Of a stretch of 64,000 nt of DNA, positions 17,415-58,816 are shown piece after piece. Location: positions 1 through 64,000 of the forward strand of contig JAXMNT010000030.1 of the NCBI GenBank assembly GCA_034670305.1, in the 5' to 3' direction. Position 1 is the first letter of the stretch. The number at the start of each line of letters is the position of its first letter. Below the pieces are notes generated by a model. It saw only the letters and a list, made by a program, of their open reading frames with translations, was not told the DNA's origin and ran no database searches. The DNA is from Deltaproteobacteria bacterium (lineage in GTDB: Bacteria > Myxococcota_A > Polyangia > Polyangiales > Houyiibacteriaceae). A program made the position numbers and the translations under genes.

Positions 17415-20400
17415 GAGAGCACCTCGGTCGAAAGCACGGTCGCCGACGCGACCGGTCCAAAGGAGTCGAGCGGCTCGATCGGCAAGGGTGGGGGCGGCAG
17501 CGGCGCCGGAGAGGACTCCGCTTCCACCGCATCGGGTTCTTCGCCCTCGCGATCGATGACCAGTTCACGCGAGCCGAGCACTGCGGTGGCGCGGACCTCC
17601 GTGCCCGCTGCAGACGCATCGTCGAACGCCGACGCACCGAGCCCGCGAAGGGTTCCGCTGAGACTCCAGCGGAGCGGCAGGGGAATGCGCGCGTGGCCTC
17701 CGGGGGCCAGCGGGCGAAGCCGCAGTTGCAACGTGCGTCCTTCCATCGTCGGCTCCGAGACCGTGAGTCCGTGCAGGGCTTCGCGGGTGGGCTCGTCGAG
17801 TTCGGTGCCGGCCGGCAGATCGATCCAGACGATGGGCGCGGTCATCAGACGCGGTTCGCGGTTGCGCACCGTGAGCGCGAGACCAGCCCGTGCGTCGCGG
17901 GGACCGAGCTCCCCGTCGATCACCAAATCGATGCGCGCACGGCGGGCCGGTTCCGAATCCCAGGGTCGGCCGTAGCGAACGTCGGCGAACGCGAGCGCGA
18001 GCCCCGGTGCGCCCGCGATCTCCACGACGTGCGCGCCGGGTGTGCCCGCGTCGGGCAGCACCGCAACCCGCACCGTGGAGGTCGGTGCGTCGTCGGGCGC
18101 GGCCAGTTCGAGCGGGCGGCCGTCGATGGTGGCGCGCATCTGCGCGCCAGCGCCGCGACCCGCGAGCAAGCCGGCCGAAGCGGTCGCGTAAACCCGCGCA
18201 TCGGCGGGCCAGTGTTCCGCCGTCTCGGCGAGACCGACGAGGTGGCGGGTGAACGGAAGTCCACGGCCCGGTTCGGACAGCGCGGCCCAGGCACCGGCGA
18301 CGAGCGCCGTCGGTTCGAGACGCGCCCACGGTTGGCCGGCCTGGTTCGGTGCTTCGAGGAACGCCTCGCCGTCCGGACCGGAGCCGAGCGTGATCACGTG
18401 GCGCTCCACCCGGCGCAAGAGCTCGCGCGCCCTCCCGCTTTCACCAGCCAGCGCCAACGCGAACGCTGCGCGGGCCCACTCCACCGGCGCATCGGACATC
18501 TGCACCGCGCCGCTGCCGACCCGCCGGATCAGATCCGACTTCATGATGTCGACGGTGTCGCGGAGCGCGGCCCGTTGCTCGCGGTGGCGGGTGGCCACCG
18601 CGAGCGCGAGCAGCGCCGACGCGTCGCGGGGCGCGGTCCCAGCGCTGGCTTCGCCCCCGAGGATGCCGCTCACGTGACGCAACCCGCGCCGGATCACTCC
18701 GTCGGGCACCGTGGCGTCGTTCCAGGCCGTCGCGATCGCGCGCGCCGTCTGGATCGGGTTGCCTCCGATGTTGTGGGCTTCGTTCAAGTCCGTGACGCGC
18801 AGAACCGCCCGGGCATGCATCAGCATCTCCTCGGGGATCTCTTCCCCGAGCAGCGCCAGCGCCCACCCGGCGTGCGGGTTGCCCGCGCCGTACTCACTCG
18901 CCGCTCCGAAGAGCGCCGTCGCGGGCACGATTCGAAGTTCGCCCGCGCCGCGTGCCGTCGCGTCTGCTGGAACCTCGAAGCGGAGGCGCGTGGTGCCTTC
19001 GCCGGGTTCGATGAGTTGCGATCGACGGTCGCGCACGAGGCGAGCGTCCGGCCAGACCACGAGCGGACGGCGGACCGCATCGAGCGGCGCATCGTCGCTC
19101 GCGCGCAGGACCCGCACCATCACCGATCCTTCTCCGACCTCGTTGGTGCGCAGCTCGACGGGCACTTCGATCGCGCGGTGCGCCGGAACCTCGACGGTTT
19201 GCGCTTCGGGGCCTTGGATGCCGAGCCCCTCGCCGGTGAAGGTGACCTTGGCGTGGAGCACTCCGTCGGTGCGGTTCTCGACCCGCACCGGCACCGTGAG
19301 CACGTCGCCGATGGTGGCGAAGGGCGGGATCGGCGCGTCGATGGTGGCTTCTTGATCCACGCGAAGTTCCGTCGAAGCGCTGCGTACCCAGCCGGTCGCG
19401 GTCCAGGCGATCGCTTCGACCCGGTACGTCGTGAGCGCGTCGGCCAGCACCACCGGATGGGTGGTCGCGGTTCCGTCGAGCGGGATCTCACCGACGAACG
19501 CGAGCGTGGCTGGAAAGTCCTCGCGGACGACGTCGCGCATCGTACCGAACGCACTCGGCGGCGCAGGCGGCGCCGCCTGCTGCTCGTTGCGCTGTTCCCG
19601 GTGCTCCGTCGCGATGGCCTCCTCCGGCTCCGCCATGTCGGCGGCAGCGGCCTGCGGTGCACGGCTCCGCGCTCGGCTCGGGGCGGCGCCTCGCCCGATC
19701 ATGCCCATGTTGCCGAGACCGATGGTGCCTTCGCCGCTGCCCCCACCCCCGCGGCCGGTGCCGCGCAGGCCGAGGCCCCCGTACCCGTAGGCTTCCCCGA
19801 TGGCGTCGCCGTCGAGACTGCCCAGCGCGTCGTCGGCTTCCGAGAGGCTCGCCGTCACCGTGCGGGCGCGCTGCTCGTCGCGCGCCGCCAGACTGATGCT
19901 GGCGTACGCCTGCGCCATCGCGGCCAGCACCTGCGGCCCCGGCGCAAGCGTCGAGAGCGCCTTCATCAGCCGGTCTTCACCCGAAGCCACGGCGTAGGGA
20001 GACCCGGCCGCGACCACCCGGCCGAACGGGTTCGATACGTCGTCGCCGGTGCCCGCCCGGCCATCCGGACCCGGACTGACGAGCTCCCAAGCCGGCGCCC
20101 GATCGCTCAGGACGACGCGTGGCGACGTGGTGCGGCGAAGGGAGAACGGACGGCCCCAGGGATCGAGCAGGTGGGCCGAGGTCAACGTGCCGAGCTGCAC
20201 GAGCCGCGAGAGCCACCGCTCCGGCGGCTGCCCAGCCGAGGCACGCGCCGCGTCGGCGTTGTCCGGATCCGTGAACCGTTTGATCACGAGCATCAGGAAT
20301 ACGAGGCGCTTGCGGGTGATGCGCTGGGCCAACGTCGCGAAGGAGAAAGTCGGATCCACTTCGCGCAGGTTGGCGATCGTCATCGTCTCGTTGCCGAGGG

Positions 20401-22609
20401 TCGCGACCTGAGACGCGGAGATGCGGCGGGCGTTGACGAGGTTGGCCAGCGCGTCGGGGTGGAAGCTGTAAGCGGCGCCGCGGCGAGACACGATGTTCTG
20501 CTCCACGAGGTCGTCGATGGTGGCGCTCTCGACGATGCTCTCGAGCATCACCATCAGGCGGCCGATGCCCCGGCGGCGGAGCTCGTCTCGGAGCACGATC
20601 GGGTCGCGCAGCACACCGGTCTGGCCACCGAAGTGCTGGGTCTCACGCCAGTAGGGCTGGGTGAGCGGCTGCGGTCCGGACGGGTCTCCATCTCTTGGAA
20701 GCGTGGCGGTGAGGGCCGCGCGCAACATCAGCTCCGCGCCTTCGGCGGCGGGGTTGGTCGCCGCTTCGTCGATCGCGCCGCGCAACCAGTCCATCGTCCA
20801 CGGCACTTCGCCGCCGTGCATCGCGAGGTCGCGGACGACCAGTGCCGCCCAGGCGCGCGGAGACGCGCTCGTGGTGGCGAGCGAGACCTGTGCGGTCTGA
20901 CGCACCTCGTAGCGCTCGGCGTCCGGTTCGAGCGCGAAGCCGAATGCATCGGCCGGTCGGACGAGCACCGCATCGAACGAACCGACGCCGAGCGATGTGC
21001 CCCCGTACTGGTCGAGTTCCGGGATGCGGTCGTGCGGAAGCAGCGGTCGCGCGCGCAGTTGAACGACGCCGCTGACGTGCGGCGGAAGCTCGAGGCTCGC
21101 GCGGGCGCCGGTCGCGAAGTCGGAGGCCACCACGACGCCGCGGGAGAGCGCTTCGACCAGCACCGGCCGACCGCGCACGTCCGGGTGTCGGCCGAGATCG
21201 ACTTCCACCGTCCCGCCGGGCGCGACGACTCGCGTGCGCACCTCGGGGCGGACCCGCGCCTTCGGCTGCACGGCCACGCAGACCCGCGCGAAGGCCGGTC
21301 GATCTTCGTCGAGCACCGTCACGTCGAGCCGGGTCGCGATCCCGCTGCACCCTGAGGTCGCGCTCGCGCCGCGGATCGGGCCGGCGGCGCCGTCTTCCAC
21401 CCGGAGCGGAACCACCGCGAGTCCGTGCGCGTCGACCGCGAGTTCGATCGTGCCGCGTGGCACCGTCGCGCCGACCACCCGGATGCGGGTGCCGGCCGGC
21501 GCGGGTTCGCCGCGTGGATCGGTCACAGCGAGGATCGCTTCGGCATCGACCTCGGGCACGAGGCCGCCCGTCTCGGCCGTGGCTTCGACCCGCCACTGCA
21601 CGCGCGAGAGCAGGAACGCGACCTGGGTGTGGATGGTTCCGTGGCCCGGATGGGTCACGCGGATTTGCACCGCTTGCGTCGCGACGTCTCCCGCCAGGTA
21701 GCTCGGCGCGTCCATGCGAATGGGCACCTCGCCGCGGCTGTTCGTGGTGAGGGTCTGCTCGACCCGTCCGATCGAGAGCTTCACCTCGGCTTCCGCGATC
21801 GGAGTCCCCGAAGGCGTGTTCACCCGGATCAGGCCAGTGAGCTGGCCCGACGGGGGCACGACGCGCCGGTCGAGGTTGGCGTCGACGAGGATGCGTTCGA
21901 CCGTTCGTCGCCCAACCTGGAAGTTCGCGGCACCGGACGCATTGGCGATCGAGTCGTCGACGCTCACCCGGACGCTGTACCCGCCGTCCACGGCGGAGGC
22001 CGGGAGCTCGACCGGCATCGTGATCGCGCCGCTCGGTGCGACCGGCAAGCGCTGGTCGGCGAGCGGCCGGCCCGAAGGATCGTTGACCACCACGCGCAAC
22101 GTGCGGCCGGTCACCGGCGCACCGTCGGACTGCCGGGTCAGACGGACCCACACGTTTGCGGTCTCGCCGGGCTCGTAGCGCCGGCGGTCGAGCAGCACGT
22201 CCAAGTGGAGCGGCGACTGCAGCGACATGCCGTACTCGAACGTGCGCGTCTTCTGGCCCGAGCGGATCTCGAACTGGAGCTGCGGGTTCTGAAAACGTTG
22301 CTCCGGGATCACGATCGATCCAGCGAAGCGACCGGTGCGGTCGGCCTGGATCTCGACTTGTCGCACGACGCGATGGTTGCGCGCCTCGGCGTCGTACTCA
22401 CGCAGTCGCAGGAACACCTGCGCGCCCGCCGCCGGCCGAAGCTCGGCCAGGTCGATGACGTCGTAGACCACCCCGCTGAACGAGAGCGGCTCGCCGTAGG
22501 TCGCGTTGGTCGCGCCGTTGAGTTCCAGCTCGAGGCCGGTGTTGCGTTGTGCGGAGACGGTCGCGGTGAGCGAGGCGAGCGCGAGCGTGAGCAGATGAAT
22601 TCGTCGCAT
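17411..22609 (-). CDS. Alpha-2-macroglobulin-like secreted protein (no thioester) with GspG-like motif
   Basis: Signal peptide MRRIHLLTLALASL; MG2-like LDRRRYEPGETANV; VREDFPATL...LADALTTYRV; LLDPWGRPF...ELVSPGPDGRAGTGDD; GTGA overlap with the paralogue. Confidence 0.82.
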   Translation of the reverse strand: MRRIHLLTLALASLTATVSAQRNTGLELELNGATNATYGEPLSFSGVVYDVIDLAELRPAAGAQVFLRLREYDAEARNHRVVRQVEIQADRTGRFAGSIVIPEQRFQNPQLQFEIRSGQKTRTFEYGMSLQSPLHLDVLLDRRRYEPGETANVWVRLTRQSDGAPVTGRTLRVVVNDPSGRPLADQRLPVAPSGAITMPVELPASAVDGGYSVRVSVDDSIANASGAANFQVGRRTVERILVDANLDRRVVPPSGQLTGLIRVNTPSGTPIAEAEVKLSIGRVEQTLTTNSRGEVPIRMDAPSYLAGDVATQAVQIRVTHPGHGTIHTQVAFLLSRVQWRVEATAETGGLVPEVDAEAILAVTDPRGEPAPAGTRIRVVGATVPRGTIELAVDAHGLAVVPLRVEDGAAGPIRGASATSGCSGIATRLDVTVLDEDRPAFARVCVAVQPKARVRPEVRTRVVAPGGTVEVDLGRHPDVRGRPVLVEALSRGVVVASDFATGARASLELPPHVSGVVQLRARPLLPHDRIPELDQYGGTSLGVGSFDAVLVRPADAFGFALEPDAERYEVRQTAQVSLATTSASPRAWAALVVRDLAMHGGEVPWTMDWLRGAIDEAATNPAAEGAELMLRAALTATLPRDGDPSGPQPLTQPYWRETQHFGGQTGVLRDPIVLRDELRRRGIGRLMVMLESIVESATIDDLVEQNIVSRRGAAYSFHPDALANLVNARRISASQVATLGNETMTIANLREVDPTFSFATLAQRITRKRLVFLMLVIKRFTDPDNADAARASAGQPPERWLSRLVQLGTLTSAHLLDPWGRPFSLRRTTSPRVVLSDRAPAWELVSPGPDGRAGTGDDVSNPFGRVVAAGSPYAVASGEDRLMKALSTLAPGPQVLAAMAQAYASISLAARDEQRARTVTASLSEADDALGSLDGDAIGEAYGYGGLGLRGTGRGGGGSGEGTIGLGNMGMIGRGAAPSRARSRAPQAAAADMAEPEEAIATEHREQRNEQQAAPPAPPSAFGTMRDVVREDFPATLAFVGEIPLDGTATTHPVVLADALTTYRVEAIAWTATGWVRSASTELRVDQEATIDAPIPPFATIGDVLTVPVRVENRTDGVLHAKVTFTGEGLGIQGPEAQTVEVPAHRAIEVPVELRTNEVGEGSVMVRVLRASDDAPLDAVRRPLVVWPDARLVRDRRSQLIEPGEGTTRLRFEVPADATARGAGELRIVPATALFGAASEYGAGNPHAGWALALLGEEIPEEMLMHARAVLRVTDLNEAHNIGGNPIQTARAIATAWNDATVPDGVIRRGLRHVSGILGGEASAGTAPRDASALLALAVATRHREQRAALRDTVDIMKSDLIRRVGSGAVQMSDAPVEWARAAFALALAGESGRARELLRRVERHVITLGSGPDGEAFLEAPNQAGQPWARLEPTALVAGAWAALSEPGRGLPFTRHLVGLAETAEHWPADARVYATASAGLLAGRGAGAQMRATIDGRPLELAAPDDAPTSTVRVAVLPDAGTPGAHVVEIAGAPGLALAFADVRYGRPWDSEPARRARIDLVIDGELGPRDARAGLALTVRNREPRLMTAPIVWIDLPAGTELDEPTREALHGLTVSEPTMEGRTLQLRLRPLAPGGHARIPLPLRWSLSGTLRGLGASAFDDASAAGTEVRATAVLGSRELVIDREGEEPDAVEAESSPAPLPPPPLPIEPLDSFGPVASATVLSTEVLS

Positions 22610-22863
22610 GCGGAAGACCAGACGCCTTGGAGGGCAAAAGGTTTTGGATCGGCGCCAATTAGACCGACAAGCCCCACCCCCTGCGGATGCTCTCGATCGT
22701 GCGCGGCCGGAGGCTACCAGCATCCGGCCGCTGGGGGAGGCGCAGCGGTGCGCTGCGGGAGCGCCCATGCACACGTGGCCATGAGGCACGATTTCGTGAC
22801 CGTTCGCTCCGAAGTTCCAGGACCACGCTGTGGCCAGAGACCCGTTCATGGCATTCTGAGTGG

Positions 22864-23604
22864 GTGAACCGCCTGGAGACGCTGCCCTTGCTCGTCGACA
22901 TCCAACCGGCGGAGCTGTTGGTGCACGACTCGGTCGAGCCGTGCCCCTACCTGGAAGGCCAGCGCGCGCGCATGCCGCTGCGTCTTCCGATCCGGCAGCT
23001 CGAAGGACACGAACTCGACGTGCGTCTGGCCCGGGGCGATCGCCGCCACGGGGCCCTGTTCTACCGGCCGACCTGCCCGGCCTGCCAGGCCTGCGAGGCG
23101 ATTCGGCTCCCCGTGGACTTCAAGCTCGGCAAGACGCTGCGCCGCACCTTGCGACGCGGCGATCGGGAGATCCGCACCCGGCTCGGCCCGCCCCGGGCGA
23201 CCTCCGAACACGTGCGGCTCTACGACCTGCACCGCAGCGCGCGCGGACTCGCGCGCGACGAGGGCGGTGAGATGACGGTCCTCGGCTACCAGCGCTTCCT
23301 GGTGGACCGGCAGTGCGATTCGTTCGAGCTGACGTACTCGGTGGACGGGAAGATGGTTGGCGCCGCCGTCGTCGACCGCGGAGAGACCTCGCTGTCCGCG
23401 GTGTACTGCTTCTACGATCCAGCCTTCGCATCACTCGGCATCGGCACGTATTCGATCCTCAAGCAGCTGGAGCTCTGCCGGACCTGGAACCTCGAATGGC
23501 TGTACCTCGGGCTCTACATCGCCGGTTGCGATGCGATGGAGTACAAGGCGCGGTTCCTCCCCCACGAACGTTTGGTCGCGAAGACCTGGACCCGCTTCGA
23601 CTGA
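22864..23604 (+). CDS. Arginyl-tRNA-protein transferase / Asp-Glu leucyltransferase (ATE1/Bpt family)
   Basis: EPCPYL, GDRRHGALFYRPTCPACQACEAIR, LSAVYCFYDP, LYLGLYIAGCDAMEYKARF; start position uncertain. Confidence 0.88.
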   Translation: MNRLETLPLLVDIQPAELLVHDSVEPCPYLEGQRARMPLRLPIRQLEGHELDVRLARGDRRHGALFYRPTCPACQACEAIRLPVDFKLGKTLRRTLRRGDREIRTRLGPPRATSEHVRLYDLHRSARGLARDEGGEMTVLGYQRFLVDRQCDSFELTYSVDGKMVGAAVVDRGETSLSAVYCFYDPAFASLGIGTYSILKQLELCRTWNLEWLYLGLYIAGCDAMEYKARFLPHERLVAKTWTRFD

Positions 23605-27839: not shown

Positions 27840-27923
27840 TGCGGAAAAGAGGACTCGAACCTCCACGGGTTTTACCCCACATGAACCTGAATCATGCGCG
27901 TCTACCAGTTCCGCCACTTCCGC
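27840..27923 (-). tRNA. tRNA-Leu (CAG)
   Basis: GCGGAAG acceptor stem, D-arm TGGCGGAACTGGTAGACGC, anticodon arm CATGA-TTCAGGT-TCATG, long variable arm, GGTTCGAGTCC; the genome reads ACCG at the 3' end, so CCA is not fully encoded. Confidence 0.97.
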
Positions 27924-34389: not shown

Positions 34390-34479
34390 GCGCGCAGACT
34401 ATCTTAGTCCTGTGCCGCCGCGCGAACCCGCGCTTCACCGCGCCTGGTTCCATGGGGAAGAACTCCGGCCATCCGAGGT

Positions 34480-37400
34480 ATGACTTCGGCGATGGACCGA
34501 CACGCCGCAGAAGCGACCCTCGCCGAGTTCGGCTACGACGCCCGCCAGCTGGACCTCAACGCCCGCCACGGGTTCCTACAGTCTGCGAAGAACGGACCGC
34601 TGCGACTCATGGAAGCGTTCATCGTGTGCGGCATCCCGATGCGCGCCGCGTCCGACCGAGAGCCACCGATCATCAAAGCGGCCGAGTCTGGACTGCTTGC
34701 CCACGTGGAACTGGTGCTCGCCCACGGTGGCTCGCTCGACACACTCGACATCGCAGGCGACACCGCCCTGCACACCGCCGTCAACTGGGGGCACGAGACG
34801 CTGGTCGAACAACTCTGCGCGATGGGGGCCAAGACGGATACATCCAACAAGGGCAACTGGAGTCCGCTGGGTCAGGCCGTGCACAAGGAGAAGGTCGCCA
34901 TCGTGGAGACCCTGCTCGCGGCTGGCGCCGATCCGAACTTCGGGGGGACACCCAGCACTGTGCCGCTCGCATTCGCCAAGGACGCGGCGATGGTCGAACG
35001 GCTGCTCGCGGCCGGCGCGGATCCGAACGTCCTGCTCAGCCCAGCCACGGGCAACCACCTGCTGATCTCGCGGGCGCTCGGCGGCAAGTTGGATGTCGTG
35101 CGCGCGCTGCTCGCGCACGGCGTCGAGGACCGCCCGAACCGGGCCGGGTGGACCGCCGCGATGGTGGCGCACGATCCGGCGTGTTCCGTGAACGGGCTGG
35201 CGGCGCTCTTCCCAGAGGCGGAGCTGCCAGAAACGCCCCGCGCCGACACCCGGCTGCACCGCGCCGCAACCGCCGGTGCGGTCGACCAGGTGCGCGCGCT
35301 GCTCGACGAGGGCCTCGCGATCGACGGACCGAACGCATACGGAACCACCCCGCTCTTCAGTGCGTGCTCGAAGAAGCACTGGGGCGTGGCCGAGCTGCTG
35401 CTCGAGCGCGGCGCCGACGCGTCGATCGCCAACCACTTCGCGAACTCGGCGCTGACCTTTGCCGCCCAGGCCGGTGAGCCCCGCTGGGTGCGGACGCTGT
35501 TGCACGCCGGCGCGCCCGCCAACGAAGCGATCCCTCACGGGGAGGAAGCCCCGCGCTCGCTCGCGCTCGTGCTGGCTGCCGCCGCCGGTCACCTGGAGGT
35601 GGTGCGGGCACTGGTCCTATCGGGCGCGTCGTTCGCGAGCCGCGACAAGTTCGAACAGACCGCGGTGTTTCTCGCCGCGTCCAAGGGACACCCCGAGGTG
35701 CTTCGGTTCCTGCTCGATGCCGGCGCGGACGCCAACGTCGGCGGACGCGAGACCACGTCGCCGCTCCACATCGCGGTCGGCGCACAGCGGGTCGCCTGCG
35801 TGGCGCTGCTCTGCGAGCGCGGCGCGGATCTGGAGGCGCTCGAGACGCTCGGCCGCACGCCGCTGCACCGCATCGCGGACGCGTACAACAACACCAAAGT
35901 CGAGTACGGCGAAGTCGCACGCATCCTGCTCGAGGCCGGCGCCGACCATCTGCGTCTGGACGACTTCGGCCGGACCCCGTTGGACATCGCGATCACCACG
36001 AAGAACCAACCCGTCCTCGACGCGATGCTCACGTTCTTGCTCGACGACTGGGTGGCCGAACACACCCGGCGGAAGAAGGTGGACTGGGCGGCGCTGGTGC
36101 CCGACGTCACGCCCGTGCACCTCAAGGCCTGGATGCACCGCGACGCGAGCGACGCGATCGAGGCACTGCTGGACACTGGCCTCGACCCGGGCCTCTTTGC
36201 GGTCGGGAAACATCCGCTGCTGCACGCCGCGCTCGGTCGCAAGACTCCGGAGCTGGCCACGATGTTGTTGGATCATGGCGTGGATCCCTGGTGTGAGTCG
36301 GACACCGGCACCACGACATTGATGATCGCTGCGGGCAAGGGGCACCTGGCGCTCGTGGAGCGGCTCTTGCGACTCGGCCTCGATCCGAACGCGATGACGG
36401 TCGACTACGCGTCGACCCCGCTCACCCGGGCAGCGTCTTCGGGCAGCCTCGAAGTGGTCCAGGTCCTGCTGCAAGCGGGCGCCGAGGTGAACCCGTTGCG
36501 GGGTGGGTGGACGCCGCTGATGCGCGCGGCGCAGGCGAAGCACCCGGAGATCGTCCGGCTGCTGCTGGAGCACGGCGCGGACGCCAACGTCGTCAGCAGC
36601 CAGAAGACTTCCGCGCTCGATGTCGCGCAGAAGGGCAAGGCGGAGGACATCGTTGCGCTCTTGGCCGAGGTCACCCAGCCCGACCTCCGGGACGCGGCCG
36701 GCAGCACCGCGCTGCTGCGCGCGTGCGTGAAAGGAGACCTGTCGGTGGCGGCGCGGTTGCTCGAAGGCGGCGCCGACCCCGACGCGAAGAACGAGGACGG
36801 GGAGACGCCGCGCAGTGTGGGGGCACGACGGGCGAAGGTGGCGGCGCTTCTCGGAGAGACACACACCCCATGGTCGGCGTCCACAGTCGATGCCGGCGAA
36901 CCGTTCGTGAATCTGTGGCGGAGCGAGGGTCGGTCCGAGTTCCTCTCCGACAGCGGGCTTCCTCCGGACGTCGAGGCGCGCAGCGCGCGGGGCGACACCG
37001 CGCTCCACATCGCGGTGTTGCTGCAGGATCGAGCCCTGGTCGTGTCCCTGTTGGAACGAGGCGCGGATCCGAACGCGAAGAACACCGTCGGCGACACCCC
37101 GTGGTCGCTGAGCATGCGAAACCGCGCCCTCGAAGAAGCCCTGCGGGGGCACGGCGCCAAGATCGACGTGAACCAGCAGGTCGTCACGGCGACGAGCGAC
37201 GAGACCTTCCGGCGAGCGATGTCGTTGGGCGATCTGCGCCGCGTGGCGGAACAGTTGGTGGACCAGGCGGTTCATCCGCACGTGCTCGGGCGGTGGTCGA
37301 CGCCGCTCTCCCTGGCGGTACGCGCGGAGGACGCCGAGATGGTGTCGATGTTGCTCGAGATGGGGTGCGACCCCTTCGCCCGCGTGACGGGCCGCTCGCT

Positions 37401-37680
37401 CCTGGAGGAGGCGGCCGGCAAAGGGAACGCCCCGGTGCTCCGATCGTTGCTGGCCGGTGGGGTCCAGATCGACGAAGCGGCCCTCTCGACCGCCGCGCGG
37501 TTCGGGCGAGCGGAAGCGCTGGGTGTGTTGCTGGAAGCAGGCGCGAAGCCGGTGCTGGATCTGGAGCCGCTCGGCGCCGAGGCGCTGCGGGTCTGGATCG
37601 ACGTGCTCTTGGAACGGGATCTCTTCGACGAAGCCCGGGGGGCGACCGCTCAGCTGCGCACCGTCGCGGCTCGAGGTTGA
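34480..37680 (+). CDS. Large ankyrin-repeat protein (1066 aa)
   Basis: More than 20 G.T(A/P)LH..A...LL..GAD.N repeats. Confidence 0.92.
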   Translation: MTSAMDRHAAEATLAEFGYDARQLDLNARHGFLQSAKNGPLRLMEAFIVCGIPMRAASDREPPIIKAAESGLLAHVELVLAHGGSLDTLDIAGDTALHTAVNWGHETLVEQLCAMGAKTDTSNKGNWSPLGQAVHKEKVAIVETLLAAGADPNFGGTPSTVPLAFAKDAAMVERLLAAGADPNVLLSPATGNHLLISRALGGKLDVVRALLAHGVEDRPNRAGWTAAMVAHDPACSVNGLAALFPEAELPETPRADTRLHRAATAGAVDQVRALLDEGLAIDGPNAYGTTPLFSACSKKHWGVAELLLERGADASIANHFANSALTFAAQAGEPRWVRTLLHAGAPANEAIPHGEEAPRSLALVLAAAAGHLEVVRALVLSGASFASRDKFEQTAVFLAASKGHPEVLRFLLDAGADANVGGRETTSPLHIAVGAQRVACVALLCERGADLEALETLGRTPLHRIADAYNNTKVEYGEVARILLEAGADHLRLDDFGRTPLDIAITTKNQPVLDAMLTFLLDDWVAEHTRRKKVDWAALVPDVTPVHLKAWMHRDASDAIEALLDTGLDPGLFAVGKHPLLHAALGRKTPELATMLLDHGVDPWCESDTGTTTLMIAAGKGHLALVERLLRLGLDPNAMTVDYASTPLTRAASSGSLEVVQVLLQAGAEVNPLRGGWTPLMRAAQAKHPEIVRLLLEHGADANVVSSQKTSALDVAQKGKAEDIVALLAEVTQPDLRDAAGSTALLRACVKGDLSVAARLLEGGADPDAKNEDGETPRSVGARRAKVAALLGETHTPWSASTVDAGEPFVNLWRSEGRSEFLSDSGLPPDVEARSARGDTALHIAVLLQDRALVVSLLERGADPNAKNTVGDTPWSLSMRNRALEEALRGHGAKIDVNQQVVTATSDETFRRAMSLGDLRRVAEQLVDQAVHPHVLGRWSTPLSLAVRAEDAEMVSMLLEMGCDPFARVTGRSLLEEAAGKGNAPVLRSLLAGGVQIDEAALSTAARFGRAEALGVLLEAGAKPVLDLEPLGAEALRVWIDVLLERDLFDEARGATAQLRTVAARG

Positions 37681-39592: not shown

Positions 39593-40314
39593 TCGTCGTC
39601 ACCGGATGCCGCCGCTCCGGCACGTCGTTGTGGATGCAGATCCTCTCCGAAGCCGGTCTGCCGATCGTGGGCGAAGCGTTCGCCCCGGAGCTCGAACCGC
39701 TCGCCGACGCGAACCCCAATGGGTTCTACGAGTCCGAACACCGCTACGGGGTGGTGGGCGAAGCGGACGCGCTTCGCGGACAGGTCTTGAAGATGTTCGC
39801 GCCCGGCCTGCTCGAAGTCGACGAGGACGAGCTCGAACGGGTTCTGTTCTGTCTCCGGCCCTGGCGCGCCCACGTCGCCTCGACGACCGCGTTCGAAGTG
39901 CTCGAGGCCGAAGCGCTCGGGGAAGAGATCCCGCAGTCGATGCCGCCCGCGCTCGAGTGGTGGTTCGAGAACTACTGCTTGCTCGGGGACTTCGCCGAGC
40001 GGGACTACCCGATGATGATGGTCGCCTACGACCTGGTCCTCGAGAAGCCGCTGGAGACGATCCAGCGGGCGCTGGTGTTCCTCGACCAGGACGAAGGGCT
40101 GGCCGAACACGCCGTGCAGGTCGTCGACCCATCGCTGCGCCACGCCGATGCCTCGACCGAGGTCGAAGTGGACCTCCCGGACGAGGTGCTGGCCACCTTC
40201 GATGCGTTCTACGACCGGGTCCGCAACCGCGACGCGTTCGACGACGCGTTCGTCGACCGACTCAGCGCGACCCACGAAGCGGTGATGCCGCTCATCGAAC
40301 CCCACCTCGAATAA
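39589..40314 (+). CDS. Sulfotransferase-like P-loop protein
   Basis: IVVTGCRRSGTSLWMQIL, NPNGFYE, YDLVLEKP, VDPSLRH; GTGA overlap with the tldD-like gene. Confidence 0.75.
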   Translation: MIVVTGCRRSGTSLWMQILSEAGLPIVGEAFAPELEPLADANPNGFYESEHRYGVVGEADALRGQVLKMFAPGLLEVDEDELERVLFCLRPWRAHVASTTAFEVLEAEALGEEIPQSMPPALEWWFENYCLLGDFAERDYPMMMVAYDLVLEKPLETIQRALVFLDQDEGLAEHAVQVVDPSLRHADASTEVEVDLPDEVLATFDAFYDRVRNRDAFDDAFVDRLSATHEAVMPLIEPHLE

Positions 40315-40316
40315 AA

Positions 40317-40597
40317 GTAGCGGCCGCAGTTCGTTGCGAGGTCCCGCGAAGCGGGCCAGTCCTCGAACAGCACCAACGAGTCAGGCGGCTCCACCCGTGC
40401 ACCTGCGCAGCGCAGGCCGAGCAACTGGTGCACTCCCCAAGTGCACACAGAGCGCCTCAAGGAGCGCCTGGGCGCAGCCGCCAATCGCATCAAGAGGGTT
40501 CTCCAAGGACCCATCGAATGGCGGCGAGCACGTGCAGGCAGCGACGGGCGCGAATTGGGGCCGCCAGTCCCGCGAAGCGGGCCACGCCCGTAGTGGC
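40317..40597. repeat. Highly structured ~280-nt non-coding element (MITE/REP-like or ncRNA)
   Basis: Direct repeat GTCCCGCGAAGCGGGCCA at 40341 and 40567; nested long-range stems; motifs shared with 895-987. Confidence 0.6.
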
Positions 40598-40601
40598 AAT
40601 T

Positions 40602-40641
40602 AAAAAGCGCGGCCGCAACGAGGGGGGTCGTTGCGGCCGCG
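40602..40641 (-). terminator. Intrinsic terminator with C6 loop (3' end of candidate sRNA)
   Basis: Perfect 14-bp stem 40608-40621/40628-40641, then CTTTTT on the minus strand. Confidence 0.85.
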
Positions 40642-40707
40642 AGATTGGGAAATGGCGAGCTGAGCGTAGGGGGGGGGAACGACGCTCGGGCGCATCGCCA
40701 CTTCACC
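40602..40707 (-). ncRNA. Candidate sigma54-dependent sRNA with two C-rich loops (Pxr-like architecture)
   Basis: Promoter, then SL1 with C9 loop, then terminator stem-loop with C6 loop and U tail; the G-U wobble in SL1 works only on the minus strand. Confidence 0.7.
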
Positions 40708-40716
40708 CAACTACCT

Positions 40717-40734
40717 ATGCGATAATGGTGCCAA
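40717..40734 (-). promoter_or_regulatory. sigma54 (-24/-12) promoter
   Basis: TTGGCACCATTATCGCAT: TGGCAC with exact GG-N10-GC spacing. Confidence 0.72.
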
Positions 40735-40799
40735 CCGAAAAGGCGAATGATCTTCACGGATGGGATCCGCTCTGGTTTCAGACGCGCAATGGGGCCGTT

Positions 40800-41900
40800 T
40801 CAAGAATGGAATTTTCGTCTCATTTTCCTACCGAATGCAAAGAGCAGCAGTCCGCCCAGCGCGAACGCCGCCGGCCTGGCCCACTCCCGGATCCGGCCGG
40901 CATGCAGCCAGCTCTGACGGGGCGGCAGGGTCACGACTTCGGGTAGGTGCAGGGGGGCGTCCAGCGGCGCGCGCATCGGAGCCAACAAGCCCTCCATCGA
41001 AGGAGCGGTGATCGTGATGGCGTTCATGACCTCCCGCTCGACCCCCCGGACATAGACCATCTCGCGGCCCGACTTGGTGCGGCGCGACCGGCGGACCTCG
41101 CCTTCCTCGCGGCGCACCCCGAAGCCCAGCTGCTCTTCCCAGCGACTGCCGCTCGGCGCGTTCATGACGCCGCCGAGACGCTCCACGAAGAGGGTGCTCG
41201 AGCCGCCGCCGTCCAGGTTGAGGGCACGGTGGGCGCCGAGCTCCGCGAGGGTGCGCGCCAGCTCGTACATCGTGAGCCCGACGCTGTGCTCTTGCCGCCC
41301 GTCGGTGACGAGCAACCACAAGGTGTTGCCGGTGCGGGAGACGGCCGCGGCCGTTCGCGGCTGCCGCATGTTGGCCGTGGCGACCGGGTCGAGCGACTCG
41401 GTATCGACCTCGCCGTCGCGGACCAGCATCGGGCGGCCAGAGGTCCCTTGCAGGATGCGGTCGGGTACGGGATCGAGCACTTCTTCGGGTGGACTGATGA
41501 AGGCGCGGCCATTGCGACCGAACCCCAGAAAGCCGAAGACGTAGTTGTCGGCGGTGTCCTCCCACGGCTCGTCGTCTGTGACGTGCAGTCCGGCTGGCTG
41601 TGCGAAGGTCTCCCAGAACCCGCCGTTCACCGCGACCGCGGCCCCCTGGGTCCGCGCGTGGTCGCCCACGGTCTGCCAACGTTCGTCTCGGCCACTCACC
41701 CGCACGTCCACGCCGTCGTGGCGAAGGTCGATCTCCAGGACGTGGATGGTGCAGGGCGCCGTGGTGACGCGGCGTAGGTACCGGATGCCCGGGTTCGGCT
41801 CCGACCAGACGTCGTAGAACTCGACCGGGGGTCGTTCGCGCTCCTGGGCAGCGGCAGGCAGGGCGGACACAAGACAGAGAACGAGGATGAAGAGGCGCAC
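40800..41900 (-). CDS. Phosphodiester glycosidase (NAGPA/DUF2233) family secreted protein
   Basis: Signal peptide, AVNGGFW, QPRTAAA, LVTDGRQ, ALNLDGGGSS; C-terminal TM. Confidence 0.88.
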   Translation of the reverse strand: MRLFILVLCLVSALPAAAQERERPPVEFYDVWSEPNPGIRYLRRVTTAPCTIHVLEIDLRHDGVDVRVSGRDERWQTVGDHARTQGAAVAVNGGFWETFAQPAGLHVTDDEPWEDTADNYVFGFLGFGRNGRAFISPPEEVLDPVPDRILQGTSGRPMLVRDGEVDTESLDPVATANMRQPRTAAAVSRTGNTLWLLVTDGRQEHSVGLTMYELARTLAELGAHRALNLDGGGSSTLFVERLGGVMNAPSGSRWEEQLGFGVRREEGEVRRSRRTKSGREMVYVRGVEREVMNAITITAPSMEGLLAPMRAPLDAPLHLPEVVTLPPRQSWLHAGRIREWARPAAFALGGLLLFAFGRKMRRKFHS

Positions 41901-53112: not shown

Positions 53113-53880
53113 TCAGTCGGTGAAGCGGAGCGTGACGACGGTGATGTTGTCTTCACCGCCGTTGGCGTTCGCTTCGGCGATCATCTGCTCGACGCCCGCC
53201 TCGAGGTTGTCTTGGGTCTCGGTGGCGATGTCGCGGATCCGCTCGTCGGTGATCATGCCGCTGAGCCCGTCCGAGCACAGGACGTAGAGATCGTTCGGCG
53301 CCGGCTCGTCCGGCACCATGTCGACCGCCACCGAGTCCTGCATGCCGAGGGCCCGCGTGATGACGTTCTTCGGGAGCTCGTCCTTCTGCTCTTCGGTCAT
53401 GTCGGGCATGACGAGCAGGTAGTCGTTCAACAGCGAGTGGTCGCGGGTCAACTGGGTGATGACGCCGTCCCGGATCCGGTACGCGCGGCTGTCGCCCACA
53501 TGCGCGACGTACAGCTTGCCGCGCTCCTTGGAGTAGAGCGCGCCGACCACCGTGGTGCCCATGCCGTGCACCTCGCGATGTTTGACCGACGCTTCGAAGA
53601 TCTTCCGGTTCGCGAGCTTGATGCCCGTGATGAGCCGGTTCTCGTCCACCGAGAGGTGGGGGTCGAAGCTGAACGGCCAAGTCGCGTCTTCGTTGGCGGT
53701 CGCCTGAAAGAAGGTCGCGATGGCGTGGGTGGCCATCTTGCTCGCGACGTCACCGGCCCGGTGACCACCCATCCCGTCCGCGACGATGAAGAGGCGGTGC
53801 TCCGGGAGGATGCAAAAGCTATCCTCGTTGTGCTCGCGTTGGAGCCCGACGTCCGATAGACCTGCGGCGATGAAGTTCAT
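53113..53880 (-). CDS. PP2C-family Ser/Thr protein phosphatase (Stp1/Pph-like)
   Basis: SDVGLQREHNED, VADGMGGH, GMGTT, HVGDSRAY, LCSDGL, GGEDNIT. Confidence 0.95.
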   Translation of the reverse strand: MNFIAAGLSDVGLQREHNEDSFCILPEHRLFIVADGMGGHRAGDVASKMATHAIATFFQATANEDATWPFSFDPHLSVDENRLITGIKLANRKIFEASVKHREVHGMGTTVVGALYSKERGKLYVAHVGDSRAYRIRDGVITQLTRDHSLLNDYLLVMPDMTEEQKDELPKNVITRALGMQDSVAVDMVPDEPAPNDLYVLCSDGLSGMITDERIRDIATETQDNLEAGVEQMIAEANANGGEDNITVVTLRFTD

Positions 53881-54010
53881 GGGCGTCGGTGGGAGCCGCA
53901 CCAGCGGTTCACGATCGAAACCTCGTCGATCGATGCATGGCCGATGGAACGGTAACGGAAGCGTAGGCTCCGCGTTGGGTGCAGTCATGTCAAGGTTCCC
54001 GTGGCGTTCG

Positions 54011-54610
54011 ATGCCCCAGAAACTCAACTTCGATGGCCGGATGGCCCTGGCCGGCCTCGTGGCCCTGGTCCACTTGGCGGGCTGTGGCATCGGTTCGAAC
54101 CCAGATCCTCGTACGATCGACGGCATGATGGGGTACGCGGCCCTGGCGATCGAACGGGACGACCCGGAGATGCTGTTCAAGGTGATCGACGAGCGGGCCC
54201 GCCACGCCCTCCTCTCCATCGTCGCCGACCGGCAGGCCGCCGCGGCGCTGATCCGGGCCCACTACCCCGCCGCCGACCAGGCCGGCGCCCTCCAGAGCCT
54301 CGGCGACGCCTTGGACGTGGGAGAAGCGTGGCAGCTCTTTGCGGCCCGCTGCGACCAGGCGTGCCGGCGGGCGTGGTCCACCGAACTCGGGGCCGTGCAA
54401 TCCAAGACGGCGGAGGGCGAAGAGTGGCTGTTGACCACCACCCGCGGGGCCGAAGTCCGGGTGTACCGCGAGCACGAAGGGGAATGGTGGGGTCTGGTCT
54501 GGCGGACCGCGGAACTCGACGCCGAGCGCGACCGGGCCAACCGGGACCTCGAGATGATCCGCCAGAACGCTGAGACCTACCAGCGCCGCGAAGCGCTGGA
54601 GCAGCACTGA
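54011..54610 (+). CDS. Hypothetical lipoprotein
   Basis: Lipobox LAGC; typical codon usage; start at 54011 or 54041. Confidence 0.75.
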   Translation: MPQKLNFDGRMALAGLVALVHLAGCGIGSNPDPRTIDGMMGYAALAIERDDPEMLFKVIDERARHALLSIVADRQAAAALIRAHYPAADQAGALQSLGDALDVGEAWQLFAARCDQACRRAWSTELGAVQSKTAEGEEWLLTTTRGAEVRVYREHEGEWWGLVWRTAELDAERDRANRDLEMIRQNAETYQRREALEQH

Positions 54611-54619
54611 ACCCGCGGC

Positions 54620-54703
54620 ACACGGGGAACACGGGGAACACTGGGTCGAAAGCACTGGCTCGAAAGCACTGGGTCGAAAGCACTGGGTCGAAAGCACTGG
54701 TCG
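54620..54703. repeat. 9-bp x2 plus 14-bp x4.5 tandem repeat (CACTGGSTCGAAAG) between convergent genes
   Basis: 14-bp units at 54639, 54653, 54667, 54681 and partial 54695. Confidence 0.9.
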
Positions 54704-54720
54704 GGGCTGCGCCCAGCGGG

Positions 54721-55089
54721 CTAGCGGTACGCGGCGGCTTCGGTCTCCACCACCAGCAGGGTCTCGACCGAGAGACCAGTGCTGTTCACGGTGACGACCT
54801 GACAGCCCCGGACCCGGCCGGTGACGATCTCCACCACTTCGAGATCCGCTCGGATGCCGTCCGAGTTCACGTTGACGACATGGTGGTCCACGCCCGCGGA
54901 CGAGAAGAGCCAGTGGCCGCCGTACCGAATGCCGGAGTCCAGATCGAGCACCAGCGGCTCGAGGGGGCGCACATCCGGCTCGACGGTGCCGAGGTGCCCG
55001 CGCTTGGATCCCTTGTAGAAACGCACCTCGACCCGATGGCCGACCGGAATGGGGGCACACAGAAGGAGGGGCAGCGTGCGGAGGGGCAC
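54721..55089 (-). CDS. Hypothetical beta-rich protein (122 aa)
   Basis: Fills the gap between convergent and divergent neighbours; ends AAAYR. Confidence 0.6.
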   Translation of the reverse strand: MPLRTLPLLLCAPIPVGHRVEVRFYKGSKRGHLGTVEPDVRPLEPLVLDLDSGIRYGGHWLFSSAGVDHHVVNVNSDGIRADLEVVEIVTGRVRGCQVVTVNSTGLSVETLLVVETEAAAYR

Positions 55090-55124
55090 GGACCGAAGCC
55101 TACCGCCCTGGTATCCGATGGCCC

Positions 55125-56171
<1,047 letters not shown>

Positions 56172-56727: not shown

Positions 56728-57162
56728 ATGACCTACCGGCTGCTCGACCACACCGCAGACATCGCGATCGAGATCGATGCGGCCGACGAAGCCGGACTCT
56801 TCGATGCGCTCGCCAAAGGACTGCTGCACGTGCTCACCGATGTGCCGGGGTGCGCGGAGGGCACATCGCACATGGACGCGACCGTCGAAGGCCACGATCT
56901 GGGCGCGCTGCTCGTCGCGTTTGGGAACGAAGTGCTCTTCCTCTTCGAGGTGGAGACGTTTCTCTGGAGCGGCGCCGAACTTCTCTCGATCGAAGACGGC
57001 GAAGCGCGGATTCGGATCTTCGGCGAGCGCTTCGATCCGGAACGCCATCCGATCGCCAGGCCATTCAAGGCCGTGACACACCACGACGCCGTGGTTACTC
57101 GTTTGCCCGCCGAGGGAGAAGCCCAGCCACGCTGGACGGCAGAGATCATCGTCGATCTCTGA
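56728..57162 (+). CDS. Archease
   Basis: YRLLDHTADIAI, FKAVTHH, C-terminal IIVDL. Confidence 0.92.
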   Translation: MTYRLLDHTADIAIEIDAADEAGLFDALAKGLLHVLTDVPGCAEGTSHMDATVEGHDLGALLVAFGNEVLFLFEVETFLWSGAELLSIEDGEARIRIFGERFDPERHPIARPFKAVTHHDAVVTRLPAEGEAQPRWTAEIIVDL

Positions 57163-57265
57163 GGTGCTTCCTCGGCCCACGCCTTCGGGCGAGCATTCAA
57201 GTTGGACGAACCGCACTGCCGCCTCCCGGCACGCAGTGGTCGTCGCAGAACAGGGCAAGCGTTCG

Positions 57266-58816
57266 ATGAGTCGTCAGAAACGAAGGAAGAAGCAGAAGCA
57301 GGAGAAGCGCGACCTGGAGAAGAAGCAGGTCAAGGCGCGGGTGCCCTACGCCCCGAAGCCCTACGCGAGTCCGGTGCCGCTCGAGCCGTTTCCTTTTCCG
57401 GGAGACGACCCGGAAAGAGACTGTGTCCGTTGGCGCATCCCGCAGCGCGGCGCGATGAATGTGCCCGGCGTCGTGTTTGCAGACAGCACGCTCTTGCCCG
57501 ACGTGCTCGCGGACAAGTCGCTCGAGCAGGTCGCGAACGTCGCCACCTTGCCCGGCATCGTTGGCGCGTCGTTCGCCATGCCCGACATCCACATGGGCTA
57601 CGGCTTTCCCATCGGCGGGGTCGCCGCGTTCGACGCCACCCAGGGCGGGGTCGTGAGCCCGGGTGGCGTGGGCTACGACATCAACTGCGGCGTCCGCTTT
57701 CTCGCTTCCGACATGCATCTGGATCGGATCGGCAAACGCATCGAGAAACTCACCGACACCCTCTTCGAAGCGATCCCCGCCGGGGTCGGATCACGGCGCA
57801 AAGAGATCTCGCTCAGCGGCGGCGAACTCAGCGAACTGCTGATGGACGGGATGAAGTGGGCGAAGCGCAAAGGGCTCGCCAACAACCAGGACGAAGCCCA
57901 CACCGAAGACCGCGGCAAGATGGCCGCCGATCTCAAGTACGTCTCGAACCGGGCGAAGCAGCGCGGCGGCCCCCAGCTCGGCACCCTCGGTAGCGGCAAC
58001 CACTTCGCAGAGATCGGCGTGGTCGACGAGGTGTTCGACGAGGAGATCGCGGAGGCGTTCGGGCTCGAGCTCGGACAGATCACGTTGATGATCCATTCGG
58101 GTTCCCGCGGACTCGGACACCAGGTCTGCACCGACTTCCTCAAAGACATGTTCAAGGCGGTGGAGAAGTACGACATCCCGCTCGCCGACAAGCAGCTCTG
58201 CTGCGCGCCCATCCACAGCGACGAAGGCGAGCGGTACCTGAGTGCGATGGCGGCGGCGGCGAACTTCGCCTTCATGAACCGCCTCGTGATGGCGCACTGG
58301 GCACGCCAGGTCTTCGACGACATGTTCGGCGCGGAGCTGCGCACCGTCTACGACGTCTGCCACAACATCGCGAAGCGCGAGCAGCACGTGGTCGATGGGG
58401 TCTCGAAGGAGCTCGTCGTACACCGCAAAGGCGCGACCCGCGCGCTGCCGCCCCAACATCCGGACCTGCCCGAGCGCTACCAGAAGTTCGGTCAGCCGGT
58501 GGTGATCCCCGGCGACATGGGGCGCTACTCCTTCGTGATGGCCGGCGCCGCGCACTCGTCCGAGACGATGCACAGCGCGTGTCACGGCGCCGGCCGGTTG
58601 CTCTCGCGGTCGGAAGCCAAACGCCGGTTCACCGGCCGGCAGTCCGAAGTGCTCTCCAAACACGGCGTCTTCGTACGCGGCGCCTCCAAAGCGACCGTGG
58701 TCGAGGAGATGCCCGAAGCCTACAAGGACGTCGCCGACGTGGTCGGCGTGGTGGAGCGTGGCTTCATGGCCAACCCAGTGGTGCGCCTGCGCCCGCTCGG
58801 CGTCGTCAAAGGCTGA
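57266..58816 (+). CDS. rtcB: RNA 3'-phosphate/5'-OH ligase RtcB (archease-associated type)
   Basis: MPDIHMGYGFPIGG, GYDINCGVR, GSGNHF, HSGSRG, HNIAK, HRKGAT, HGAGR, EEMPEAYKDV. Confidence 0.95.
   Translation: MSRQKRRKKQKQEKRDLEKKQVKARVPYAPKPYASPVPLEPFPFPGDDPERDCVRWRIPQRGAMNVPGVVFADSTLLPDVLADKSLEQVANVATLPGIVGASFAMPDIHMGYGFPIGGVAAFDATQGGVVSPGGVGYDINCGVRFLASDMHLDRIGKRIEKLTDTLFEAIPAGVGSRRKEISLSGGELSELLMDGMKWAKRKGLANNQDEAHTEDRGKMAADLKYVSNRAKQRGGPQLGTLGSGNHFAEIGVVDEVFDEEIAEAFGLELGQITLMIHSGSRGLGHQVCTDFLKDMFKAVEKYDIPLADKQLCCAPIHSDEGERYLSAMAAAANFAFMNRLVMAHWARQVFDDMFGAELRTVYDVCHNIAKREQHVVDGVSKELVVHRKGATRALPPQHPDLPERYQKFGQPVVIPGDMGRYSFVMAGAAHSSETMHSACHGAGRLLSRSEAKRRFTGRQSEVLSKHGVFVRGASKATVVEEMPEAYKDVADVVGVVERGFMANPVVRLRPLGVVKG

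Follow-up and report, generated by a model that had tools for sequence, protein, structure and literature searches.

Introduction

Pxr, the best-studied regulatory RNA of myxobacteria, is a small RNA (sRNA) that gates fruiting-body development in Myxococcus. As far as the sections covered of the relevant papers extend, synthesis of Pxr requires PxrK/PxrR, a two-component system (PxrR is Nla19), function is lost when the loop of its first stem-loop (SL1) is deleted or a single C in that loop is changed to A (PMC5684412), the origin of the RNA is placed within the Cystobacterineae (PMC11928866, PMC5568312) and its targets are described as still unknown 15 years on (PMC11928866). Here we compare with Pxr an element on the minus strand (40602-40811) of a 64,000-nucleotide (nt) stretch of DNA from a member of the Polyangiales (contig JAXMNT010000030.1, positions 1 to 64,000; hereafter the window). 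A preliminary description of this stretch, made from its letters alone, had proposed a candidate sigma-54-driven sRNA with two C-rich loops that would be distantly homologous to Pxr or else have arisen independently as its analogue, and as far as sequence analysis reaches that proposal is supported.

The reading that we favour, with a probability of about 0.7, is that the element is an independently transcribed sRNA gene of ~106 nt under PxrR-like/sigma-54 control, that its C loops act in trans and that it belongs to a family of such genes in the Polyangiales. No account of a Polyangiales counterpart of Pxr was found in the literature on pxr and myxobacterial sRNAs that was searched, the 2014 paper on the origin of Pxr lying outside that search.

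Results

A predicted sRNA gene with two poly-C loops

The promoter, SL1, 14-bp stem with a CCCCCC loop and CTTTTT run of the preliminary description are all present on the minus strand. The predicted sigma-54 promoter of the −24/−12 type, TGGCACCATTATCGCA (40718..40733), identified from sequence and conservation, reads in context TTGGCACCATTATCGCAT, with TGGCAC-N5-TCGCA at 40733-40718 and the −12 C at 40719. Setting the predicted start of transcription 12 nt past the −12 C (~40707) and the end at the T run gives a predicted transcript of ~106 nt (40602..40707). SL1 (40644..40711, from folding and covariation) consists of an outer stem GAAGUGGCG/CGCCAUUUC, an inner stem GAGCGU/ACGCUC and the apical loop CGUUCCCCCCCCCU. 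The poly-C run of this loop (C9, 40669..40677), preceded by CGUCGUU, is a putative seed, and C34-C39 of the loop are unchanged in all sequences of alignment A2. SL2 (40608..40641) is a perfect 14-bp intrinsic-terminator hairpin (loop CCCCCC at 40627-40622) that is supported by folding and covariation and was also called independently by a terminator scan (14 pairs, 11 of them G-C, loop 6, tail CTTTTTAATT); CTTTTT comes next, its T run occupying 40602..40606. With RNAfold the segment 40712-40600 has a free energy of −57.4 kcal/mol; 200 shuffles gave −32.7 ± 3.2 (z = −7.8), and none of them was as good. A scan of 40200-41000 gave no sigma-70-like promoter. The element had been described as holding no open reading frame; the window copy does carry an ATG-started frame of 31 codons, but this frame is not conserved, the homologue in genome G004 having a stop at the third codon and those in G013 and G024 having no ATG.

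Taken alone the promoter is weak evidence, because the pattern TGGCACNNNNNTNGCW, which matches once in the 64-kb window, is expected there 0.15 times and has at least one match in 12 of 100 shuffles; its evidential weight lies in its conservation in homologues. Of 533 sigma-54-like sites scanned in the window's genome (G000), only 3 have two runs of at least six C in the next 170 nt, and two of these are the window locus and a paralogue with equal spacing.

Conservation and covariation of the family

BLAST searches over 60 relatives returned six clear homologues in three other genera and one further copy split by Ns (L015 1157-1482, in G031). The N run of the latter starts exactly in the poly-C loop and may represent an assembly gap at the homopolymer or else bases withheld from the sequence. 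An alignment of seven sequences showed TGGCAC, TCGC and the loops to be invariant and the flank further upstream not to be conserved; RNAalifold drew 23 pairs from it, 6 with compensatory changes. A covariance model (R1) built from the RNA alone, with no promoter in it, matches the window at 40598-40710 (107.5 bits). Within the window's own family (f1) it has matches in 41 of 88 genomes, which represent 14 of 18 genera. Across the order 16 of 151 genomes have a match; they belong to families f1, f22, f17 and f7, and some contain two or three copies. Beyond the order R1 gave one weak match, probably false.

Over the 48 aligned matches the share of paired cells is 95.3% and falls to 36-51% if the partners are slid, although it should be noted that this alignment was fitted to the model and so favours it. 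In all 26 base pairs both partners show changes, and none of 500 shuffles reached the observed values. The support extends to both hairpins: 12 of 12 pairs in helices 1 and 2 (SL1; 90-94.5% of cells paired) and 14 of 14 in helices 3 and 4 (SL2; 94-98%) have compensatory changes. At least two runs of at least five C occur in 44 of the 48 matches. The promoter form TGGCA[CT]-N5-[TC]NGC precedes 41 of them, usually 7-9 nt before the start of the model, and another four carry GTGC or ATGC at −12, making 45 of 48; only L077, L081 and L164, itself a doubtful match, fall outside. As R1 held no promoter, these counts are independent of the model. One unpublished genome (G194) is the source of L070 and makes up one of the four genomes from f22; without it there are 47 matches and three genomes, and the conclusions are unchanged.

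These results suggest that the self-contained sigma-54-dependent unit of ~105 nt put forward in the preliminary description exists as such, with promoter, structure and loops all conserved. Judged on its sequence record, the locus represents a real, conserved sRNA gene family that is absent from Rfam.

A candidate upstream activating sequence and a PxrR-like regulator

Sequence and motif counts place a candidate upstream activating sequence at 40776..40811 on the same strand, composed of two imperfect palindromes arranged as TTCCAttctTGAAA-N8-TTGCGcgtcTGAAA (start-to-start distance 22 bp). Between it and the promoter lies an AT-rich stretch (GAAGATCATT), where the element GAAGATCATTCGCCT (40741..40755, minus strand) could be an IHF-type bending site; GATCATT- or AATCATT-like stretches occupy the matching place in homologues from several genera and in the paralogue mentioned above (paralogue B). 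In the family the upstream regions carry TTTCR-N4-YGAAA palindromes, usually two and 22 bp apart, whose half-sites are those found upstream of pxr. Near-identical strings occur at the two kinds of locus, tgcaagcccgcgctttca at the window locus against tgcaagccggctttca upstream of pxr and, as a second near-match, ttcggatctgcaagcccgcgctttca against ttcagatctgcaagccggctttcagcgctgaaa. The motif TG[AC]A[AT]-N6-11-[AT]T[TG]C[AG] was counted in 27 of 40 homologue upstream regions and in 9 of 10 Pxr regions, the chance probability being 0.006 per 170-nt window in G000 (519 sites in that genome overall). In the family its positions (−68, −79, −90 and −100) fall in steps of ~10-11 bp, that is, in helical phase. 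A degenerate tandem-palindrome scan of G000 yielded mostly GC-rich coding repeats, and a search for places where the enhancer precedes a sigma-54 site gave four, two of which are sRNA genes (the window locus and paralogue B, at C38:20235).

The gene upstream of pxr in locus L168 ends in an HTH_8 domain, and full-length proteins matching this fragment (up to 89%) come from Corallococcus, Myxococcus and Stigmatella. Its best match in G000 is the product of C17:28839-30194, which has the domains REC, Sigma54_activat and HTH_8. The helix-turn-helix of this protein is 49% identical to that of L168 and the two share the recognition helix LG[VL]SSTTLWRKMKRL; this motif occurs once in a six-frame translation of G000. 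Full-length PxrR orthologues match the C17 protein with 412-436 bits and 50-53% identity, and the next paralogues in G000 with 320-355 bits. In a reverse search with the last 72 residues of the C17 protein the best 120 matches were all proteins of Polyangiales or Myxococcota, and no Myxococcaceae genus was named among these 120. Sandaracinus amylolyticus, a cultured species, has an orthologue of the regulator.

Orthologues of the C17 protein (68-85% identity, paralogues reaching at most 51%) are found in G004, G013, G010, G121 and G166, all of them R1-positive, and also in G009 and G020, which R1 missed and which have diverged sigma-54-driven RNAs with twin C loops. Genomes G003, G039 and G043 have neither an orthologue (best 45-48%) nor a convincing RNA. 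The regulator thus accompanies the sRNA in 7 of 7 genomes, compared with 0 of 3 genomes without a convincing sRNA. G000 also contains rpoN; Hfq was not detected in this genome (7.9 Mb, 105 contigs, 96% complete).

Searches with Pxr and with Rfam models

The Rfam model of Pxr (RF01812) gave no match at E ≤ 10 over 40200-41000. As a positive control it recovered 11 of 11 metagenome pxr loci (91-129 bits). Two surveys were uninformative on the distribution of Pxr: RF01812 had no match in G000 and 151 genomes of a phylum sample, in which the controls were silent too, and the published Pxr Northern probe, allowing up to three mismatches, was found in 0 of 401 genomes of the phylum. The same probe (PMC5568312) matches 11 metagenome contigs exactly. 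The Pxr loci of the metagenomes have a TGGCAC-N5-[CG]TGCT promoter, an SL1 tip UUCCCCCCCA, a small SL2 and a terminator that starts CGCGGCC. The preliminary description had ascribed several C-rich loops to Pxr; a poly-C SL1 loop is indeed present, but it is the only one. With filters off R1 locates pxr in 9 of these 11 loci (13-17.5 bits, E = 0.005-0.05), and an alignment to Pxr has GAAGCG, CUGAR, GUUCCCCCCC and UCAGC in a common order.

No Rfam family reaches threshold for the window element. In a permissive search with 121 nt the highest scores (gathering scores in parentheses) were 24.8 bits for 6C (47), 20.9 for ar7 (60), 19.6 for sX13 (50) and 19.2 for CcsR1 (65.3). Over 20 family members the best values were 40 bits for 6C (in G006), 35.8 for ar7, 31.8 for ar14, 21.3 for sX13 and 20.9 for CcsR1. 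Because all of these are C-rich-loop RNAs of other phyla, the weak matches are taken as shared design and not as proof of descent.

Paralogues and variant forms

Paralogue B (L202, C38:20105-20390, plus strand) has the enhancer TTGAAAcacgttccTTTCA and, as its promoter, TGGCACGCCGCATGCT; the first hairpin has a C9 loop and the terminator a C7 loop. As R1 missed this copy, the R1 counts understate the size of the family.

Several variants were seen in other genera. Genus g3 (L062-L066 and L073-L075; 55 species sampled, R1 matches in 14) has a three-hairpin form in which the promoter, TGGCACGGTAGTAGC, lies 58-60 nt further upstream and a CCCCCC loop is found on the additional 5' hairpin as well. 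In genus g12 (L059, L061) the promoter, the outer stem and GAGCGUCGUUC are kept and both poly-C runs are lost or replaced. Tandem copies, each with its own promoter and enhancer, occur in family f22 (L068 1251-1368 and 1501-1621 in G121; L071 1501-1615 and 2171-2280 in G166) and resemble the tandem pxr paralogues reported for Cystobacter, whose ability to block development was scored in M. xanthus OC delta-pxr (PMC5568312). The genomes of genus g10 (G009 and G020; L245, L249, L259, L260 and L244) each hold two or three of the RNAs missed by R1, with twin hairpins and CCUCCUCC...CCCCCC loops, and CAGCGUCGGCGUUCC before the loop is kept in one of them.

Elsewhere in the phylum, genus g179 of family f32 (L210-L213) has a sigma-54-driven sRNA candidate of ~115-130 nt with a GUUCCCCCCCAACAC loop, conserved in four genomes, whose upstream element differs (GGAGTAATCTTTTACCAC). 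A phylum-wide search for TGGCAY-N7-GC-N20-50-C7 matched 192 of 401 genomes, the reversed control being of similar size in many genomes, and of 30 loci taken from it only the four of g179 had the look of an sRNA gene.

Neighbouring genes and genome context

Flanking genes were defined from codon-position G+C and Pfam. In the window a same-strand gene with a NAGPA domain ends at 40800, its TGA stop (40802-40800) being overlapped by the first palindrome of the enhancer, and the element lies 66 nt past this stop. A plus-strand gene with no family assigned ends at 40314; since this next gene is convergent, the element cannot be a downstream-gene leader in the window. Among eight loci the upstream gene is NAGPA in G000 and G004, an MFS/TLC transporter in G025 and G014, a divergent Iso_dh gene (isocitrate/isopropylmalate dehydrogenase) in G032 and a divergent PAD_porph gene (agmatine-deiminase type) in G013, G024 and G031. 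On the downstream side seven of the eight loci (G000 and six of the seven others) have a convergent gene, the exception being G004, where a same-strand gene begins ~170 nt downstream of the sRNA. As the neighbours vary and are often divergent or convergent, the element is neither a 3' untranslated region (3'UTR) nor a leader.

Searches for related loci through the neighbouring proteins were less productive: the NAGPA protein gave 77 pattern matches, none of which was confirmed, and an Iso_dh query gave 80 loci, of which 40 were scanned with R1 and one (L090) held the sRNA. The closest relatives of the window's own Iso_dh, at 77-80% identity, come from metagenome-assembled genomes labelled Polyangiales, Polyangia, Myxococcota or Sandaracinus, in agreement with the Polyangiales genome proposed in the preliminary description. 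In the window a PP2C phosphatase gene (minus strand) and the Iso_dh gene (plus strand) stand back to back at 53116-56168. In genera g14 and g15 the sRNA adjoins an EVE-DUF2505-PP2C cluster, and in G032 it also adjoins Iso_dh; because the counterparts of these genes lie at 53116-56168 in the window, the sRNA gene may have moved by ~14 kb in G000.

The 290 nt that separate the sRNA from the convergent gene contain two copies (40341-40357 and 40567-40583) of a 19-nt hairpin repeat, CTGGCCCGCTTCGCGGGAC (minus strand, UUCG-type loop), which occurs 27 times in the genome and has the look of an intergenic repeat of the repetitive extragenic palindrome type. Other genes of the window include an RtcB RNA ligase (57077-58813), two giant genes (12684-23119), one of them with MG2/A2M alpha-2-macroglobulin domains, a gene for an ankyrin-repeat protein of 1090 residues (34408-37677) and one tRNA (27840-27923).

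Discussion

Proposed mechanism

We propose that an NtrC-type enhancer-binding response regulator, for which the C17:28839-30194 protein, the genome's best match to Myxococcus PxrR, is the candidate, would bind the tandem TTTCR-N4-YGAAA site ~70-100 bp upstream and activate sigma-54 RNA polymerase at TGGCAC-N5-TCGCA. The transcript of ~106 nt would fold into two hairpins, the second of them the terminator, and would display single-stranded poly-C loops on both. These loops, together with the CGUCGUU flank, would pair in trans with G-rich stretches of mRNA, typically in ribosome-binding regions, and would do so without Hfq. The pairing role is proposed from the example of Pxr, which cannot do without its SL1 loop, and from that of the 6C, sX13 and CcsR-type RNAs. 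Transcription, dependence on sigma-54 and on an enhancer-binding protein, base-pairing, the targets and common descent with Pxr are steps that we infer.

Alternative explanations

It is very improbable that the hairpins simply form the 3' end of the NAGPA transcript (3'UTR with terminator) or act in cis on a downstream gene, as its leader or attenuator, and that the −24/−12 match is due to chance. The short distance to the NAGPA stop on the same strand, the chance expectation of the promoter pattern in the window and the closely following same-strand gene in G004 speak for such an explanation, but in 6 of 8 loci another gene or a divergent one lies upstream, all but one of the loci have a convergent gene downstream, the promoter is kept in nearly every copy while the flanks are not, and a conserved enhancer lies upstream. 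With homologues standing behind unrelated or divergent genes, the NAGPA 3'UTR explanation, which the preliminary description had named as the one that could overturn it, fails. It is less improbable, but we still think it would be surprising, that the RNA mainly serves a C-rich-RNA-binding protein, as its sponge or scaffold, and does not mainly pair with mRNAs. The conserved CGUCGUU beside loop 1 suggests a longer seed, the known C-loop sRNAs 6C, sX13 and CcsR act by pairing, and this analysis identified no candidate protein; on the other hand homopolymeric C loops are low in target-discriminating information, and complementary G-rich sites are not enriched at gene starts. On the same side stands the statement, in the sections covered, that the targets of Pxr have not been identified in 15 years (PMC11928866). 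A target search with GGGGGGAACGA and at most one mismatch gave 134 sites, 21 of them just before plausible starts, against 83 and 10 for the reversed control, which is no usable enrichment. The monooxygenase leader that had been suggested as a target within the window (2273-2283) lies 5 nt before the ATG and could pair with loop 1 at 10 of 11 positions, but it is one of those 21 sites and, the reversed control being comparable, is indistinguishable from chance. Whole-molecule duplex prediction was also tried for targets and was rejected as meaningless, as it ignores intramolecular structure.

A more serious competitor, although we consider it unlikely, is that a C-loop sRNA family arose separately in the Polyangiales, that its likeness to Pxr in loop, size and terminator is convergent, like that to 6C, ar7, sX13 and CcsR, and that related regulators were recruited twice. 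The target result just given and several further observations weigh against the interpretation that we favour, and some of them speak directly for a separate origin. The element is not a member of RF01812, the Rfam Pxr model, which the preliminary description had suggested for a search: it scores 11.4 bits on 40595-40715 against a gathering score of 80, the model was not listed for any of the 20 family members tested, and unrelated C-loop families outscore it (6C with 24.8-40 bits and ar7 with up to 35.8, as well as sX13 and CcsR1, all sub-threshold). When the RNA body was aligned to Pxr with the C runs fixed and compared with 500 shuffles, the similarity was not significant for the window RNA (z = 0.55, 137 of 500 shuffles as good), for G121 and paralogue B (z ~0) or for G004, and was marginal for G013 (z = 2.4, 6 of 500) and G010 (z = 1.7), so that four of the six members tested showed none of significance. 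Because the body similarity is marginal or not significant, homology to Pxr is not proven from the RNA sequence alone. Transcription of the locus is itself deduced from sequence, a search for sequencing runs containing it having listed six, none of them registered as RNA, and many of the 48 R1 matches are close relatives of one another, as are the 10 Pxr loci. The enhancer motif was chosen by eye and then counted, and its palindromes are spaced 22 bp apart in the window against ~19-20 bp at pxr. As for the regulator, co-occurrence was judged from 10 genomes that are related to each other and include one with a completeness of only 85%, the best match to PxrR holds in one direction, the reciprocal search having been swamped by Polyangiales orthologues, and the C17 gene is not beside the sRNA but on another contig, with no adjacent histidine kinase, unlike pxrR-pxr. 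A separate origin would also agree with the different synteny, with two hairpins that both have poly-C loops where Pxr has three hairpins and one such loop, and with the g179 sRNA, in which a GUUCCCCCCC loop and a sigma-54 promoter go with another upstream element, indicating that this loop type recurs with different regulators. What it does not readily accommodate is that the enhancer half-sites are the same and the strings nearly the same as at pxr, that the recognition helix of the best PxrR match is identical to that of PxrR and unique in the genome, that R1, built from the Polyangiales RNAs, finds the pxr position in most of the Pxr loci, and that the marginal similarities of G013 and G010 come with GAAGCG, CUGAR and GUUCCCCCCC in the same order. 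The window family is most likely, on this balance, the Polyangiales counterpart of the PxrR-Pxr module, and it is probably through the shared regulator that it is tied to Pxr.

Implications

If the window family is such a counterpart, the origin of the module would be pushed back to the split between Myxococcia and Polyangia; failing that, the convergence would be striking. We suggest tentatively, and with rather more doubt than conviction, that Pxr is one branch of an old family of PxrR-controlled, sigma-54-dependent poly-C-loop sRNAs that spans the Myxococcota, instead of being a recent invention of the Cystobacterineae, and that the ancestral role was a general nutrient/stress switch and not the gating of fruiting bodies, the latter suggestion being drawn from the Polyangiales carriers, which are mostly uncultured and in some cases small-genomed. 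The dozens of natural variants with clear covariation bear on which parts of the RNA matter, and common descent would offer a comparative handle on the targets of Pxr, through G-rich sites conserved across two classes.

Comparison with known systems

Outside the phylum a parallel in regulation is Dv_sRNA2 of Desulfovibrio vulgaris, an sRNA targeted by a dedicated sigma-54 response regulator, DVU0679, which is the one regulator known for it, according to the part of the source covered (PMC3333781); there the regulator is adjacent and the phylum is a different one. An old Myxococcota-wide family may be related to this DVU0679/Dv_sRNA2 module. In architecture the window RNA is like the 6C RNA of Actinobacteria (RF01066), which has two hairpins with at least six C in each loop (C9 and C6 in the window RNA) and is the top-scoring Rfam family for several members. 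6C acts without Hfq, and the host of the window RNA apparently lacks Hfq. All 21 sequences tested nevertheless score below the 6C gathering score of 47, 6C belongs to another phylum, and to our knowledge no sigma-54 promoter is known for it, so that the architecture is alike but descent is not shown. The ar7/ar14 and CcsR1 ('cuckoo', CCUCCUCCC) RNAs of Alphaproteobacteria and sX13 of Xanthomonas likewise combine C-rich-loop hairpins with a terminator, and members of genus g10 carry CCUCCUCCUCCCCCC loops that resemble those of the 'cuckoo' RNAs, but the scores lie far below the gathering scores of these families, which belong to other phyla and have other promoters.

Pxr has three stem-loops (SL1-SL3), whereas the window RNA has two hairpins and no small SL2, and the third hairpin of genus g3 is a 5' C-loop hairpin and not the small SL2 of Pxr; the terminator loop of the window RNA is also poly-C. 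The pxr gene lies between pxrR (nla19) and an NADH dehydrogenase gene, unlike the family described here, with its NAGPA, MFS/TLC, Iso_dh, PAD_porph and EVE-DUF2505-PP2C neighbours, and this family belongs to the Polyangiales, for which the portions of the literature covered report no Pxr. Both RNAs occur in the same phylum, have a sigma-54 −24/−12 promoter directly upstream and measure ~105-110 nt (a predicted length for the window RNA), with enhancer repeats of the TTTCR-N4-YGAAA type further upstream (for Pxr, PMC5568312 and PMC10217877, in the sections covered). In both the apical loop of SL1 contains GUUCCCCCCC, the full loops being CGUUCCCCCCCCCU in the window and UUCCCCCCCA in Pxr, and both terminators are rich in G+C, with stems that start CGCGGCC (GCGGCCGC in the window, GCGGCCCG in Pxr). 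For the terminator stem of Pxr (SL3) a conserved core of 8 bp is described. Both have tandem paralogues in some genomes, and PxrR and the candidate regulator of the window RNA are both of REC-AAA+-HTH_8 architecture with the same recognition helix.

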